From the UHGV virus genome UHGV-0119409: a stretch of DNA of 10,192 nucleotides; one strand, written 5' to 3'. The position numbers were made by a program, and so were the translations under genes. The notes under the pieces are model-generated. The model saw nothing but the letters and a program-made list of their open reading frames with translations, had not been told where the DNA came from and did not search any database. The number at the start of each line of letters is the position of its first letter. Positions within the stretch are counted from its first letter, which is position 1. The DNA is from a virus. Positions 1,338 through 10,192 of the stretch are shown here, piece after piece.

Positions 1338-1414
1338 TTACCTCCGAGGTAATTAAAAACCACATAAGACATGAAATCAATAGAGTTTATAATATTTTGT
1401 TACCTAACAGGTAA
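1338..1414 (-). promoter_or_regulatory. Operator-flanked sigma70-like promoter reading leftward into the DUF1064 gene
   Basis: Minus strand reads: palindrome TTACCTGTTAGGTAA (1400-1414), 19 bp, TTGATT (-35; 1375-1380), 17 bp, TTTAAT (-10; 1352-1357), palindrome TTACCTCGGAGGTAA (1338-1352), then ATG. Same architecture as the pL-like promoter at 4399-4475. Confidence 0.6.
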
Positions 1415-1451
1415 TTATCGAGGCGTAAAAAAATGCGCTATCGCGCTGGTA

Positions 1452-2228
1452 TTACTTGATAAATCCTGCCGCCTTTCCCCGCCTGTATTCCTCCATCAGC
1501 CACTGCGCCGGTGTTATTCCCCCAAGGGTGGCGGCGTTAGGCATGCACCCGAAACTTCGCCCTGGTGGATGGTAAACGTCTCTCCCTGTGTCCGGAGGTG
1601 TACTCATGGGCTCTGGCTTTGCCTGTATGCTGATCACCGGATCGGGTATCTGCTGTCCGGAAGCCACCTTTTTCGCCCAATCATCGAGCAGCCTGCGCGC
1701 GTGTTTCTCAACCTCACTCTCGCTAAGCTGGCGCTGATACATTGCACGACGGGTATCACATACGACCCAGTACATAACCGGATGCCGCCACGGGAATCTT
1801 TCGGGACCACCAGGATATAAACTTTTTTCCTTGCTGTACCGGTGAAACTCCGCCATCACATCGTCAATGGTGACGCCAAGAACCATCTTGCTGTCTTTGC
1901 ACCACTTGATGAATTGCCCTGGCGACGGCCAGAACGGAGATTCACTGGCGCGGGCGTGGCGCATACCAGCGTTAACCTGTTCCATTGTAGTGATCCCATT
2001 CTCCAGAAACGCAAGCATCCATTGCTTACGGAATTCATTAAGTTTGTTCTGCTCCCTTATGGTCGAAACGCTTGCAGGAAATGCAGCCTGTAACTGGACA
2101 AATAGTTCATTGAAAATTCTAGCAACCTGCTCCTTTTTGCCATTGCTGTCACGCCGCTCTTCATGCACAGCAACACCATGCTCACGTAAGCGATCGTACT
2201 CATTGAGAAGTTCTGGAGTTGATTTCAT
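1452..2228 (-). CDS. Replication protein P-like DnaB helicase loader (258 aa)
   Basis: Blocks ...AFPAS..., ...ENGITTMEQVNAGMR..., ...PSPGQF..., ...YPW... match what I recall of lambda P. ATG at 2228 with AAGGGG 6 nt upstream. Overlaps the end of the upstream O-like gene by 29 nt. Confidence 0.85.
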   Translation of the reverse strand: MKSTPELLNEYDRLREHGVAVHEERRDSNGKKEQVARIFNELFVQLQAAFPASVSTIREQNKLNEFRKQWMLAFLENGITTMEQVNAGMRHARASESPFWPSPGQFIKWCKDSKMVLGVTIDDVMAEFHRYSKEKSLYPGGPERFPWRHPVMYWVVCDTRRAMYQRQLSESEVEKHARRLLDDWAKKVASGQQIPDPVISIQAKPEPMSTPPDTGRDVYHPPGRSFGCMPNAATLGGITPAQWLMEEYRRGKAAGFIK

Positions 2229-3030
2229 CCCACACCCCTTCTATCCAGTCAGTGTTATTCCAGTCAAGCTCATCGCTTTTCCCGGCATTTTTTGATTTTC
2301 CCCTGATATGATTTACGTGCCTGGCGAATTTTTGTTCCCACTGAACCTGCGTGAACACTTTGCCCTCAGCCATCCAGTAATCCCGGAATGCAGCAAGTTC
2401 AGCAGGTGTAAATTCCGGTTCCGGCAGGGCCGTTCCCCACAGCGCAGCACGCCGCCGAAAATCTGGCGACGGTAGCCAGCCATCTGTCATCGGAAATTTC
2501 CCGATGGGTTCACTCAGGCCATCCAGAAATTCAGGTTCTGCCACCTGCAACGGCGTACTGTTCGCTTCACTGGTCGGAGCACCCTCGCGCACGTGCGCTA
2601 TGTGTGGGGTTTTATATATATCTTCCTCTTCCTCTTCCTCTGGTAACTCCTTTTGTAACGCTGTTGGCGTTACTTTTTGCGTTACTCGTTTTCGATGCTC
2701 TGCCACTCTTCTATTCGTAAGTGCACGTTTTTTCGATGATTCTCCATTATGTCGCTCAAAGTTTGGAAGAATTAGTTTGCCGTCATGATAAGCAAGCCAT
2801 CCGACGCTAATGAGGGCGTCAGCAAATCCTGTAATAAAAGCGAGTCTATCAAGCACTCCTTTTGTAACGCTGCCAGCGTTACCGTCTATTGTTTGCTGGT
2901 CAGCCCATGCCCATATACGAACCAGCTTTCCAAGAACAGCATCTGGATCAATACCCAGAATTTCTGCTATCTGAAAAATTTCAGGTTTATCAGGAGTGAT
3001 AACTTCAACCTTAATCCAGCTGCTTGCCAT
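2200..3030 (-). CDS. Replication initiator, O-like (276 aa from ATG at 3030; a GTG at 3048 is the alternative start)
   Basis: Sits directly upstream of and overlapping the P-like gene. ATG at 3030 has GAGGGG 6-7 nt upstream. The protein has an N-terminal domain, an acidic EEEEEED linker and a C-terminal domain, and the iteron-like DNA repeats sit in the linker-coding region as in lambda O. Confidence 0.65.
   Translation of the reverse strand: MASSWIKVEVITPDKPEIFQIAEILGIDPDAVLGKLVRIWAWADQQTIDGNAGSVTKGVLDRLAFITGFADALISVGWLAYHDGKLILPNFERHNGESSKKRALTNRRVAEHRKRVTQKVTPTALQKELPEEEEEEDIYKTPHIAHVREGAPTSEANSTPLQVAEPEFLDGLSEPIGKFPMTDGWLPSPDFRRRAALWGTALPEPEFTPAELAAFRDYWMAEGKVFTQVQWEQKFARHVNHIRGKSKNAGKSDELDWNNTDWIEGVWDEINSRTSQ
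2611..2685. other. Candidate origin of replication: AT-rich tract, (TCTTCC)3 and dyad half-sites at ~12-bp spacing
   Basis: ttatatata (2612-2620), then (tcttcc)x3 (2621-2638), then half-sites gtaacgc at 2655-2661 and gcgttac at 2667-2673 and 2679-2685 (12-bp spacing; partial gtaac at 2644). The 19-bp dyad gtaacgctgttggcgttac lies at 2655-2673. All inside the linker-coding part of the O-like gene. Confidence 0.5.
2857..2882. repeat. Second copy of the 17-bp repeat ctccttttgtaacgctg plus a 19-bp perfect dyad
   Basis: Exact 17-bp repeat of 2647-2663 followed by gtaacgctgccagcgttac (9-bp arms). It is read in a different codon phase from copy 1, so the conservation is at the DNA level. Confidence 0.5.
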
Positions 3031-3223
3031 AGGTTTCCCCTCTTGCACTCTTTAGTGCACAAGCAAATTCATTACGATGGCGGTTGGCGCTATTCATTGC
3101 ACATTCAACACATGTTCCGTTCAGAACATACCTTTCAGAGAGATGGCCGTGACGGCACCGCTTTCCTGTGAAATAGCGATTTAACCCGGCTTTTGCGGCC
3201 TCCATTCTGGTTACTATCTTCAA
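3011..3223 (-). CDS. Small Cys/His-containing protein, possible zinc-binding regulator (70 aa; TTG start at 3223 or ATG at 3205)
   Basis: ORF between the cro-like and O-like genes in operon orientation. Motif ...KRCRHGH...NGTCVEC... suggests a metal-binding knuckle. Start codon uncertain. Overlaps the O-like gene start by about 20 nt. Confidence 0.45.
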   Translation of the reverse strand: MKIVTRMEAAKAGLNRYFTGKRCRHGHLSERYVLNGTCVECAMNSANRHRNEFACALKSARGETYGKQLD

Positions 3224-3326
3224 TTTTTCCGCCCCTTTTTGTTATTGATATTGGCTATTTTGCACAATTGGAAAATTTGATCAACCAGATTTGGTTTTTT
3301 ATTACCTTTGAGGTACGAATAGATAT

Positions 3327-3350
3327 GAAAAGACCGCCGGGTGGCGGTCT
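3327..3350 (-). terminator. Intrinsic terminator downstream of the cro-like gene (tR1-like position)
   Basis: Minus strand reads AGACCGCC-ACCC-GGCGGTCT (8-bp GC-rich stem, 3331-3350) followed by TTTT (complement of 3327-3330). Confidence 0.5.
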
Positions 3351-3371
3351 ACAGAGGGTTGTAGCTGGATA

Positions 3372-3602
3372 TCATGAGTAGAAGAAGTATGCCAGTTCTG
3401 CTTTTGAGCGCAGCCATTGTCTTGTTTTACAGGCTTTAAAAAGCCCATTCATCAATACCTTACCTGGCATTTTGCGCTTGCCTGTTAAGTGAGTCTGGAT
3501 ATAGTGACTCGTCGTTCCGGCTTCCTGTGCGAAGGCTTCACGCTCATCCGGAGTAAGTGCAAGCCAGTGCTTTTTGAAATCGAAATGTCCGTTATCGCTC
3601 AT
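3372..3602 (-). CDS. Cro-like HTH DNA-binding regulator (76 aa)
   Basis: First gene of the leftward operon, divergent from the repressor. Segment ...FAQEAGTTSHYIQTHLTGKRK... has helix-turn-helix character resembling Cro/CII-type phage regulators. Weak SD. Confidence 0.55.
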   Translation of the reverse strand: MSDNGHFDFKKHWLALTPDEREAFAQEAGTTSHYIQTHLTGKRKMPGKVLMNGLFKACKTRQWLRSKAELAYFFYS

Positions 3603-3638
3603 AGCTATTGCCTGATATTTATTTCAGATAATAAATAT

Positions 3639-3701
3639 TCACCCATAAGGTAACAAAAATCAAGGATAGTTACCTATGAGGTGCATTTACCTGTTGGGTA
3701 A
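3639..3701. promoter_or_regulatory. Divergent immunity control region with a tripartite operator (OR-like)
   Basis: Perfect palindrome ttacctgttgggtaa (3687-3701), and degenerate copies ttacctatgaggtgc (3670-3684) and tcacccataaggtaa (3639-3653), between the divergent cro-like and repressor genes. Exact -35/-10 elements not resolved. Confidence 0.6.
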
Positions 3702-3756
3702 TATTGCTTTAAATTGAATCATCTACTGATTCATATATGAGGCGATTTTCCAGAAA

Positions 3757-4341
3757 ATGAAAAGTATCCAGGACGTCCGCAGGCAAAATCTCAACGACTT
3801 GATCGACCGTGAATTCAATGGTGTTCAGACGCGGATGGCAGAAAAACTTGGAACTCAGGCAAATCTGGTAAACCGCTGGGCTCTTGGCAAGAAGGTTATC
3901 GGCGACCAGGTTGCGCGAAAAATTGAAGCTGCCGCCAATAAACCACGTAACTGGCTTGATATCGATCGCTCGCTTTCTCAGGAAGGTTTTCAGCCTGTCG
4001 GCCCGAGCGATATAGGTCAGCTGGCGGCTCACAACCTGGAACGCTGGATGAGCGAAAGCCGCGACCTTTCAACACAGGGAAAACTTCACCGCGCATCCGG
4101 CGTCGCCCAGGTGACAATCAGCCGCCTGTTAAACAATGAGGTCAGCGTTTCCATTTCCACCCTGGAGAATGTTGCATCCGCATTCGGGCGTCACGGATAT
4201 GAACTACTGATTCACCCGCACGACCCTGCGACTATCAACTATGACCGCTCACGCTACGCATTGTTACCCGAAACCGAGAAAGCAAAGATCGAAAGTTACA
4301 TTGAATTTGTCATCAACCAGAACGAAAAAAGCAAACAATAA
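3757..4341 (+). CDS. Prophage repressor, CI-like by position, without a recognisable LexA/S24 autocleavage domain (194 aa)
   Basis: Divergent from the cro-like gene and followed by a terminator. Two HTH-like segments (...QTRMAEKLGTQANLVNRW... and ...ASGVAQVTISRLLNN...). No Ala-Gly cleavage site or Ser...Lys dyad pattern seen. Confidence 0.6.
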   Translation: MKSIQDVRRQNLNDLIDREFNGVQTRMAEKLGTQANLVNRWALGKKVIGDQVARKIEAAANKPRNWLDIDRSLSQEGFQPVGPSDIGQLAAHNLERWMSESRDLSTQGKLHRASGVAQVTISRLLNNEVSVSISTLENVASAFGRHGYELLIHPHDPATINYDRSRYALLPETEKAKIESYIEFVINQNEKSKQ

Positions 4342-4362
4342 AACTATATTTTTCAGTAAGTA

Positions 4363-4386
4363 AGCCGCCTCATGGCGGCTTTTTTA
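4363..4386 (+). terminator. Rho-independent terminator after the repressor gene
   Basis: agccgcc-tcat-ggcggct hairpin (4363-4380) followed by tttttt (4381-4386). Confidence 0.75.
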
Positions 4387-4398
4387 TTGCCAGATAGA

Positions 4399-4475
4399 TT
4401 ACCTTACGGGTAATTTTTTTAACTCATATCTATTGACACCAAACCAAATAAGCATAATTATTACCTCAACGGTAA
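4399..4475 (+). promoter_or_regulatory. pL-like early promoter flanked by two operator palindromes
   Basis: ttaccttacgggtaa (4399-4413), 19 bp, TTGACA (4433-4438), 16-17 bp, taatta (4455-4460), ttacctcaacggtaa (4461-4475), then GAGG and ATG at 4495. Confidence 0.7.
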
Positions 4476-4494
4476 CAGACCGAGGTAACAAGTT

Positions 4495-4647
4495 ATGCAG
4501 TGGAAAATCATCAACGGTTGGTACTGCGTTACTGCATGCGGATTCATGAGCTGGAAGTTCCGCACCTTACAGGAAGGCATTAAGTGGGCTTTCGTCAGCA
4601 AAGAAGCTCGCGATGTAGCCAACGATAACGAGATATGGGAGGGCTGA
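4495..4647 (+). CDS. Small Trp-rich protein (50 aa), first gene of the rightward early operon
   Basis: ATG at 4495 with GAGG 9 nt upstream. Translation MQWKIINGWYCVTACGFMSWKFRTLQEGIKWAFVSKEARDVANDNEIWEG. Stop TGA at 4645-4647 is 2 nt from the next start. Not in the supplied ORF track (below its length cutoff). Confidence 0.4.
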   Translation: MQWKIINGWYCVTACGFMSWKFRTLQEGIKWAFVSKEARDVANDNEIWEG

Positions 4648-4649
4648 TA

Positions 4650-4949
4650 ATGAACGTTAATCAGCAGAAAAATCTTCAAAAAATCATGCTGGCATTCGAC
4701 AAGGACTACCGCCTGTCAGAACAGCTATATGACCGACAAGTTGAACTGATTGAGAGCATCCGACTTCATCAACTGTCCTCAACTTTCGACGTTGTAACAG
4801 GCAAAGGCGTTCGTCAGGAAGTGCTGGAGGCTGCTAAAGACAGCCCTGAGTTCGAAGAACTGATAGATTCCTACCGGCGCGAGGCAATGGCAATTATCGC
4901 CCGCTGGGATCTGGCGGATCGGATTGATGGGCAGAGGGAAGCGGCATGA
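4650..4949 (+). CDS. Hypothetical protein (99 aa) immediately upstream of the exo/RecT pair
   Basis: ATG at 4650 with GGGAGGG 6 nt upstream (preferred over the in-frame ATG at 4635). Stop overlaps the next gene's start (ATGATG). Confidence 0.6.
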   Translation: MNVNQQKNLQKIMLAFDKDYRLSEQLYDRQVELIESIRLHQLSSTFDVVTGKGVRQEVLEAAKDSPEFEELIDSYRREAMAIIARWDLADRIDGQREAA

Positions 4950-6926: not shown

Positions 6927-7175
6927 ATGAAAGGTGCATTAGGTAAGAAGGAACTCCTGGCGGTGGTGCCACTGTCATGGAGCACTATAGACCGTATGGA
7001 GCGCGCAGGGGAATTTCCTAAACGCTGGTATATCACTGACAAACGCTGCGCATGGAACCGTGACGAAGTTGAGCGTTGGCTTGATGAACGTCAGGCAGCA
7101 AGCCCGGCAGAGTTCCAGGGTAAAAAACCTCCTGTTCAGCAACGTGTATATCGTCCCGTGAGCAACGCTGCATGA
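6927..7175 (+). CDS. AlpA-family HTH protein, probable excisionase / recombination directionality factor (82 aa)
   Basis: AGAGAGG upstream of ATG at 6927. Motif ...LSWSTIDRMERAGEFPKRWYI...RCAWNRDEVERWLDER... fits AlpA/Vis-type small MerR-like excisionases that partner P4-type integrases. Confidence 0.7.
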   Translation: MKGALGKKELLAVVPLSWSTIDRMERAGEFPKRWYITDKRCAWNRDEVERWLDERQAASPAEFQGKKPPVQQRVYRPVSNAA

Positions 7176-7284: not shown

Positions 7285-7584
7285 GTGAGAAAGTTAAGCC
7301 GACTTGAAAAATATCACATGAATAAGGTTTCAATGCGCAGTCCGTCAAAGATTGTCGCCGTTACTCCTGCGGCGATAGAGATCGAAAAACGCGCGATTGA
7401 AAGAGAGAAAAAAGGGCAGTTCCGCATTGCCGCTCACCTTTGGCTTCAGTGTATGGATGTTGCTTCTGGTGATGTTGAGCGTGCAAGGATCGCGGTTCGC
7501 AGGGACCAATGTATCACAAAAGGTAACGGCCTTCGCCGTGGAGACTATAGCGGTATAGGATGTTGCGGGGTGGTTTATGACTAA
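7285..7584 (+). CDS. Small ANR-like protein, possible regulator (99 aa from GTG at 7285; ATG alternatives at 7318 and 7333)
   Basis: Pattern ...KRAIEREKKGQFRIAAHLWLQCMDVASGDVERARIAVRRDQC... resembles the small ANR (Aar-like) family. Stop overlaps the methyltransferase start. Start codon uncertain. Confidence 0.45.
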   Translation: MRKLSRLEKYHMNKVSMRSPSKIVAVTPAAIEIEKRAIEREKKGQFRIAAHLWLQCMDVASGDVERARIAVRRDQCITKGNGLRRGDYSGIGCCGVVYD

Positions 7585-10142: not shown

Positions 10143-10192
10143 AATTCACCCGTATAGAAACCATTTTCATGACGGTATGAGAGTATACCTTT

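Follow-up and report, generated by a model that had tools for sequence, protein, structure and literature searches.

We analyzed a stretch of 10,192 nucleotides from the virus genome UHGV-0119409 (hereafter the window), in which the palindrome TTACCNNNNNGGTAA (TTACC-N5-GGTAA) recurs around the gene of a 194-aa repressor, rep (3757..4341, plus strand), and at two promoters on either side of it. We consider it very likely that these palindromes are the operators of Rep, acting as the master repressor that silences the promoters of the phage. The DNA of the window, which is 99.6% identical to a prophage of Escherichia coli APEC O1, represents the integrase-proximal immunity and early region of an ε15/phiV10-like podophage prophage (genus Uetakevirus) adjoining guaA. 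Between 3200 and 4700, it shares 97-98% identity with phiV10, TL-2011b, ZX5 and others, and this immunity region is present in 562 of 5,426 complete E. coli genomes (approximately 10%).

An exact pattern search of the window placed perfect copies at 1338, 1400, 3687, 4399 and 4461, and a search allowing up to two mismatches added degenerate copies at 3302-3316 (one mismatch), 3639-3653 (one mismatch) and 3670-3684 (two mismatches), which reproduces the five perfect and three degenerate copies of the original prediction. Two other two-mismatch matches, at 2777 and 8597, are intragenic (chance expectation, 2.9). Perfect matches in 200 dinucleotide-preserving shuffles of the window had a mean of 0.00 and a maximum of 0, and the chance figure of about 0.01 copies in 10 kb given earlier holds (10,192 x 4^-10). 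All eight sites had been described as intergenic, and the flanking gene coordinates bear this out: the 1338 and 1400 sites lie between the start of the DUF1064 gene (1334) and the stop of the P-like gene (1452), the 3302 site has the 70-aa gene (3223) on one side and the cro-like stop (3372) on the other, the sites at 3639-3701 are flanked by the starts of the cro-like gene (3602) and of rep (3757), and those at 4399-4475 fall between the rep stop (4341) and a 50-aa gene (4495). The copies had also been assigned to three promoter regions; their spread over several regions stands, but the count rises to four in the window since 3302 is a separate region. A ninth site, with one mismatch, begins at 10185, and the window end cuts off its remainder. 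The extended operator consensus is aTTACCtnWnaGGTAAt, with half-site centres 10 bp apart.

The protein best placed to read these sites is Rep itself. The 194-aa protein matches Rep of SPC32H, PDB 5D50_A, with an E value of 3.5e-42 (phmmer against the PDB; query 1-190 to chain 2-197), and a second PDB match, 5D4Z, covers residues 89-190. Overall identity to SPC32H Rep is 43%; by domain, the alignment gives 54% for the N-terminal helix-turn-helix (HTH) DNA-binding domain, followed by 34% and 45% for the middle dimerisation domain and the C-terminal tetramerisation and Ant-binding domain. A Pfam scan of the protein returned solely HTH_3, HTH_26, LacI-HTH and YdaS-like matches and no S24 peptidase (Peptidase_S24) domain, and its C-terminal part is homologous to the Rep MDD/CAD domains. 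SPC32H Rep is an experimentally characterised prophage repressor with the layout DBD-MDD-TetDloop (PMC9986798), which binds palindromic DNA as a tetramer that the antirepressor Ant splits (PMC9638917). Its p53-like C-terminal domain both tetramerises and binds Ant, the N-terminal domains paired on one palindrome belong to different dimers, and tetrameric Ant breaks the Rep tetramer into dimers (PMC9638917; PMC9986798). The aromatic residues Phe187 and Phe190 are given as part of its tetramer interface (PMC9986798); in our alignment, F190 does not vary (F184 in the window protein), and the counterpart of F187 is Y181. The putative Rep recognition helix NL(V/I)(N/S)RW is kept in all motif-bearing contigs, and distant homologues of the N-terminal domain (Paraburkholderia, Hydrogenovibrio and Thiomicrospira) have other helices and no TTACC-N5-GGTAA sites. 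Judged by its sequence, the window system is a member of the characterised SPC32H Rep-Ant family: every defining feature that a sequence can reveal was found.

The palindrome is also conserved together with its positions. In 11 of 11 full-length Rep loci, it occurs at the same three regions with the pairs 61-63 bp apart. These loci come from eight genera (Escherichia, Salmonella, Enterobacter, Klebsiella, Superficieibacter, Erwinia, Citrobacter and Scandinavium); the relatives comprise SPC32H, Enterobacter phage Tyrion, Klebsiella phage BUCT711, and prophages of Superficieibacter, Erwinia, Klebsiella, Citrobacter and Scandinavium fetched via the Rep protein. MAFFT alignments of nine non-redundant loci showed invariance in 64 of 70 operator half-site columns (91%), 1 of 35 columns of the central N5 (3%), 23 of 32 promoter hexamer columns, and 51 of 260 other intergenic columns (20%); half-site and other intergenic columns differ with a Fisher p of 3e-29. 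The differences between the close relatives (the window, APEC O1 and phiV10) likewise fall in the palindrome centre. The 91% of invariant half-site columns, against 3% and 20%, point to selection on the half-sites and not to inheritance as a block. Such a footprint would be left by a protein that contacts a pair of half-sites separated by one turn of the helix. The operator might have been expected to covary with the repressor, with a different palindrome beside the 43-45% identical Rep proteins of SPC32H and BUCT711, but the same palindrome was found; specificity covariation is thus absent, and the one available contrast is with the distant homologues of the N-terminal domain, which have other recognition helices and lack the motif.

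At two promoters, PL and P3, a pair of sites brackets a promoter-like element. At PL, the intrinsic terminator after rep (4362..4381, plus strand; terminator scan, annotated in phiV10) is followed by the putative distal operator TTACCTTACGGGTAA (4399..4413), which precedes a T7 tract and lies 19 bp upstream of the -35 of a PL-like promoter (4433..4461, plus strand; TTGACA at 4433-4438, a 17-bp spacer and AATTAT at 4456-4461; 10/12 match in the promoter scan). The putative proximal operator TTACCTCAACGGTAA (4461..4475) is centred near +1, the final T of the -10 doubling as its own first base, and CTATTGAC at PL is invariant in the nine loci. P3 (1414-1338, minus strand) has the same register: operator, 19 bp, TTGATT, 17 bp, TTTAAT, operator. 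Its putative distal operator TTACCTAACAGGTAA (1400..1414) lies 19 bp upstream of the -35 of the promoter-like element (1352..1380, minus strand; -35 at 1380->1375, -10 at 1357->1352), and its putative proximal operator TTACCTCCGAGGTAA (1338..1352), 62 bp away centre-to-centre, has as its minus-strand start the last base of the -10. The right half of this proximal operator is the Shine-Dalgarno sequence of the DUF1064 gene, into which P3 leads. Upstream, P3 follows a terminator-like GC hairpin (GCGC-GATA-GCGC) with a T7 tract (1427..1447, minus strand) after the P-like replication gene; the hairpin is invariant in the nine loci and is an annotated terminator in phiV10, and CTATTGA and the -10 region of P3 are kept in the same nine.

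The PL and P3 modules of the window prophage and of SPC32H align without gaps, and their main invariant blocks are the operator half-sites and CTATTGA. When the whole-module pattern, with 24 specified bases, was searched in IMG/VR, the bracket module was found in at least 120 contigs, most of approximately 40 kb, and many of these carry two copies in opposite orientation approximately 3 kb apart. A Rep homologue lies alongside the module in 92 of the 120 matches listed. Bracket modules lacking a Rep gene were considered for the other 28 and rejected, as all of these loci are too short upstream. In SPC32H (4294), Citrobacter and Scandinavium (stretch 4640-4795), an extra PL site occurs 76-80 bp downstream of the proximal site, after a hairpin; Scandinavium has a further site within the PL -35/-10 spacer, and the phiV10 group has lost the downstream PL segment with the third site.

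The region between rep and the cro-like gene, OR, holds three sites around a PR-like promoter (3635..3663, minus strand; -35 TTGATT at 3663->3658 within an invariant AAATCAA block, a 17-bp spacer and -10 GAATAT at 3640->3635). Putative OR site a, TCACCCATAAGGTAA (3639..3653, one mismatch), fills the PR spacer and touches the -10; putative site b, TTACCTATGAGGTGC (3670..3684, two mismatches), lies just upstream of the PR -35 and is perfect in SPC32H and Klebsiella relatives; and putative site c, TTACCTGTTGGGTAA (3687..3701, perfect), lies 17 bp from b and nearest rep and overlaps the conserved GGTAATAT block. That sites a and b are imperfect here and yet perfect or near-perfect in other lineages suggests graded affinities of the OR sites. 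A PR candidate from the promoter scan, TTGTTA-17-TATTAT, is not conserved in relatives, and TTGATT-17-GAATAT was preferred to it. The GGTAATAT block might be the -10 of a rep promoter, but it has no -35 and is overlapped by an operator; candidates further downstream are not conserved.

The solo site at 3302 follows the intrinsic terminator of the cro-like gene (3331..3350, minus strand; terminator scan, annotated in phiV10). This putative operator, TTACCTTTGAGGTAC (3302..3316, one mismatch), lies 17 bp upstream of the TTGATC -35 of what appears to be a minus-strand promoter-like element (3256..3284; -35 at 3284->3279, a 17-bp spacer and an extended -10 TGcAAAATA at 3264->3256), which is conserved in four divergent genomes. 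The GATCAACC block beside the site (3279-3286), which includes a Dam site, is likewise invariant in four divergent genomes. A partner at the 62-bp distance was sought downstream on the minus strand and rejected, since 3240-3254 matches the motif at 2 of 10 positions. A plus-strand PRE-like promoter at 3302, running antisense through cro toward rep, is a possibility: in Tyrion and BUCT711, the -10/operator junction resembles that of PL. In the window, the -35 spacing of such a promoter would be 14 bp, and the conserved GATCAA is more readily taken as the -35 of a promoter on the minus strand.

Beyond the window, the motif extends over the prophage. The motif search that the original prediction had proposed gave 8 perfect and 6 one-mismatch sites in the 39.7 kb of the APEC O1 prophage, against a single perfect site in 108 kb of host chromosome, and this host site is inside a gene. 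The whole prophage with its flanks holds 15 sites with at most one mismatch (0.87 expected), and the SPC32H genome holds 10 perfect and 8 one-mismatch sites (0.67 expected), at PL, OR, P3, terS, head, ant/tsp, lysis and int. Among APEC O1, SPC32H and phiV10, the sites recur upstream of terS, of the head genes, of the lysis genes and of int, in the interval separating ant from the tailspike gene, and past ant, ahead of the c4-ant-like module. Two sites 18 bp apart seem to lie inside terS; the annotated start is 27 codons too early (phiV10 41-122; APEC O1 stretch 34020-34101), as SPC32H terS aligns from Met28, and the pair therefore lies directly upstream of the true start, behind a TGnTACTAT extended -10. 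The int site, whose first eight bases ATACCTTTAAGGTAA (10185..10192, one mismatch) end the window, continues to 10199 (APEC O1 stretch 45937-45951), lies approximately 45 bp upstream of int, and is found in SPC32H and phiV10 as well. A larger palindrome, GACGGTA...TACCGTC, encloses this site, which may serve int as a Rep operator or belong to the attP architecture.

The sites with their statistics, conservation and geometry, as well as the homologies, are observations; on this basis, we provide a putative mechanism for silencing by Rep, in which we infer that Rep binds and loops the DNA and in which direction it regulates. As expected of a homologue of SPC32H Rep, its N-terminal HTH domains would pair on each palindrome. 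Rep would be a tetramer and therefore have two DNA-binding units, which would take either neighbouring palindromes, spaced by 17-18 bp as at OR and terS, or the two members of a bracket pair. In each bracket pair, the proximal site would abut the -10 and cover +1, with the distal site 19 bp upstream of the -35. The 62-bp spacing corresponds to approximately 5.9 helical turns, so both sites lie on the same face of the DNA, and a spacing constraint is argued for by the 19-bp distal gap, which is conserved in length and not in sequence. One tetramer would thus probably clamp both 62-bp-spaced sites of PL or P3 in a short loop. In the lysogen, Rep at the three OR sites would block PR, with a in the spacer and at the -10 and b and c upstream of the -35, and Rep at the proximal sites and at OR site a would occlude the -10/+1 region of PL, P3 and PR; the solo site after the cro terminator would also be occupied. 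Because the motif precedes terS, head, ant/tailspike, c4-ant-like, lysis and int, Rep appears to silence most units directly. Taken jointly, Rep tetramers clamping promoters through 62-bp pairs (near +1 and -62, as a micro-loop) and directly gating nearly every unit (early left, early right, post-replication, terS, head, lysis, int and the antirepressor modules) would form a flat single-repressor circuit; we propose this combination only tentatively, and our confidence in it falls somewhat short of even. The pair geometry is kept free of indels in at least eight enterobacterial genera and at least 120 viral contigs. If the proposal holds, ε15-like phages would rely on such a flat circuit and not on a cascade of antiterminators or late activators.

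Several observations weigh against Rep as the common regulator of these promoters. A literature text search for TTACC/GGTAA with "operator" returned no match, with the primary SPC32H and ε15 papers outside the searched text. The Cro-like protein is as well conserved as Rep and could account for some of the sites. A loop of 62 bp would be short, and the middle-domain pairs of Rep have been reported to lie approximately 100 Å apart, compared to approximately 210 Å for 62 bp of straight DNA. Additionally, the promoter hexamers are consensus matches only, the promoter scan found 6 promoter-like sites in the window against 5.8 in shuffles, and no rep promoter was located with confidence.

The strongest competitor is the Cro-like protein, a predicted 76-aa HTH protein (3372..3602, minus strand). 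As a lytic-phase regulator, it could be the main or only binder of the palindromes, with Rep reading something else. No Pfam match was obtained for it; it matches PHROG 35 ("transcriptional repressor") with an E value of 5.6e-13, and its AlphaFold2 model (pLDDT 83.6, five helices) appears lambda-repressor-like, the top Foldseek matches being the 434 repressor DNA-binding domain, YdaS, controller (C-) proteins and P22 c2, with TM scores of 0.54-0.63 though E values above 1. Its putative recognition helix, GTTSHYIQTHLTG, is highly conserved in motif-bearing contigs. However, five contigs with the divergent Cro helix TTAGYIAAHYCG retain TTACC-N5-GGTAA, and this persistence of the motif in a lineage whose Cro helix has diverged leads us to favour Rep as the main determinant of the motif. 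No other repeated palindrome able to serve Rep was found in the immunity regions of the window, SPC32H, Tyrion and BUCT711, sites at late, lysis and int promoters suit a lysogenic repressor, and Rep is reported to bind palindromic sites (PMC9638917). A main or exclusive role of the Cro-like protein is consequently improbable. Shared use is another matter. In lambdoid phages, Cro and CI share operators, and by this analogy the Cro-like protein probably shares some sites with Rep, likely a subset at OR. The original prediction, which had proposed a repressor regulon bound by the 194-aa repressor, the Cro-like protein or both, thus gains support from the Rep homology, the SPC32H motif, the promoter-overlap geometry and the predicted HTH fold of the Cro-like protein.

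Two further explanations fare worse. Another phage or host factor might bind the sites, for example, a host protein or one of the AlpA-like and PerC-like regulators (genes at 6927-7175 and approximately 7330-7584, respectively), which are encoded in the window and also in relatives. However, the host chromosome has few copies of the motif, which is found strictly in company with the Rep/Cro pair and is densest around rep; no E. coli regulator is known to have this consensus, and we regard such a factor as very unlikely. Least likely of all, with hardly any weight in our judgement, is that the copies are passive by-products of a duplicated promoter cassette, reflecting shared ancestry, or DNA/RNA hairpins that bind no protein: the PL and P3 modules are architecturally identical and the terminator scan flagged hairpin-like pairing at approximately 4458-4491, but the half-sites and promoter hexamers are fixed across eight genera while the centre and spacers drift, a hairpin of 5 bp closing a 5-nt loop would have negligible stability, an Rfam scan of the window gave no matches, and the distal sites, being upstream of the promoters, are not transcribed from them.

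Induction of the prophage very probably proceeds through a LexA-controlled antirepressor and not through repressor cleavage. An Ant homologue of 85 aa lies at 11857-12114 of the APEC O1 prophage, outside the window; it matches SPC32H Ant, 5D50_E, with an E value of 1.4e-46, few of the 83 aligned residues being substituted, and its start codon is preceded at 21 bp by a perfect LexA box, CTGTATAAATATACAG. Induction like that of SPC32H is argued for by this Ant homologue behind a perfect LexA box and by the lack of a peptidase domain in Rep: DNA damage would inactivate LexA, Ant would be expressed, and Ant would then disassemble the Rep tetramer. A perfect Rep-type site stands just upstream of the ant promoter region (APEC O1 stretch 11766-11857), and LexA and Rep may thus both control ant, unless the site belongs to the tailspike gene, which diverges from it. 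Ant is highly similar to SPC32H Ant, whereas Rep is only 43% identical; either Ant reads a small conserved C-terminal core (IxYDxxxYxxLPxxEKxKI...F..QN), or Rep and Ant were exchanged as independent modules. In the stretch that separates the Ant homologue from a BRO-N/Ant-fusion gene (APEC O1 stretch 12118-12430), Rfam matched isrK (77.9 bits) and C4 antisense RNA (77.7 bits), along with the a1/b1 targets of C4 RNA. Upstream of this isrK/C4 module is a TTGCAA-17-TATATT promoter whose last T starts a one-mismatch Rep-type site. The APEC O1 prophage thus apparently carries a P1 immI-like c4-ant module under a Rep operator.

The closest known system is that of SPC32H, an ε15-like Salmonella podophage whose Rep-Ant switch was reportedly described by Kim & Ryu (2013) and Kim et al. 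(2016). It shares Rep, Ant behind a LexA box, the identical motif and the gene order with the window prophage, but its PL region holds a third site, and OR sites that carry one to two mismatches in the window prophage are perfect in it. In turn, the window prophage adds the BRO-N/Ant fusion gene with the isrK/C4 RNA module. For ZX5, the published work tested repressor and antirepressor function and defined no operators.

The layout resembles that of lambda CI/Cro in several respects. Divergent repressor and cro-like genes flank a three-site operator (3602-3757), a second operator region (4399-4475) lies past the repressor gene, at the early promoter of the leftward type, and palindromes for HTH dimers, graded site quality and, probably, cooperative binding are common to both. 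However, lambda operators are 17-bp CACC-N3-GGTG sequences, whereas those described here are 15-bp ACC-N5-GGT sequences; PL and P3 have two promoter-bracketing sites instead of three tandem sites, and further operators lie at post-replication and late promoters. Moreover, Rep has no S24 autocleavage domain of the lambda type by Pfam, and it is a tetramer with a p53-like tetramerisation domain (PMC9986798). With P1 C1, the window system shares a single repressor with operators scattered genome-wide before many operons, and an operator that precedes a C4-antisense-RNA/antirepressor module as in immI (c4-icd-ant), the Rfam C4 and isrK matches lying downstream of a Rep-site promoter here. P1 differs in its asymmetric 17-mer operators, its monomeric C1 unrelated to Rep, and its plasmid prophage.

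Looping repressors (GalR with OE/OI, pLS20 Rco and PrgX) offer another parallel, namely two operators that bracket a promoter and a tetramer with two DNA-binding units. The gal operators are spaced by approximately 113 bp, and the 62-bp spacing here is much shorter than those of gal and pLS20. In structure, the tetramerisation domains of Rep and Rco are alike, and looping by Rep has been proposed by this analogy (PMC9986798). Finally, Gifsy-1/3, Fels-2, coliphage 186 (Tum) and N15 (AntC) share the order in which a LexA box controls an antirepressor that inactivates a non-cleavable repressor (the Gifsy and Fels-2 antirepressors are listed in PMC7380047), and they differ in the folds of repressor and antirepressor and in the operator motifs.

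Parts of this description of the operators may have been published before; novelty is most likely for the 62-bp geometry, fixed throughout the genus, and for a regulon that spans the genome. For the solved Rep-Ant structures, the fixed 62-bp and 17-18-bp spacings would constrain how a Rep tetramer with two DNA-binding units engages DNA, a mechanism that a 2023 structural paper terms not extensively characterised (PMC9986798). Relatives of the immunity region occur in Salmonella, Klebsiella, Enterobacter, Citrobacter and Erwinia. Since operator and recognition helix stay the same even where the remainder of Rep has fallen to 43% identity, cross-immunity is predicted among ε15-like phages of different hosts. 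The motif also yields an annotation rule for ε15-like promoters, TTACC-N5-GGTAA abutting a -10 hexamer, and the PL and P3 modules are predicted to be compact, tightly defined, repressor-controlled promoters.

The genes of the window are arranged around rep. On the minus strand, the 76-aa cro-like gene (3372-3602) and its terminator are followed by the 70-aa gene, a DnaT-like gene, the lambda-P-like replication gene, the terminator-like hairpin, the DUF1064 nuclease-like gene and ea-type genes. On the plus strand, rep (3757-4341) and its terminator are followed by two small genes and by genes for a YqaJ exonuclease, RecT, AlpA, PerC, a methylase and a phosphatase, and the integrase gene stands at the right end on the minus strand. 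The DnaT-like replication gene contains a 28-nt direct repeat (2646-2673 and 2855-2882, 89% identical), each copy of which holds the hairpin GTAACGCTG...CAGCGTTAC; these repeats are candidate origin iterons, comparable to the lambda ori inside gene O. The 70-aa protein (3011-3223), at the cII position, belongs to PHROG 1081 (unknown function) and has no Pfam match; it carries a zinc-ribbon-like CxH...CxxC motif (RCRHGH...CVEC) and is kept in all relatives.

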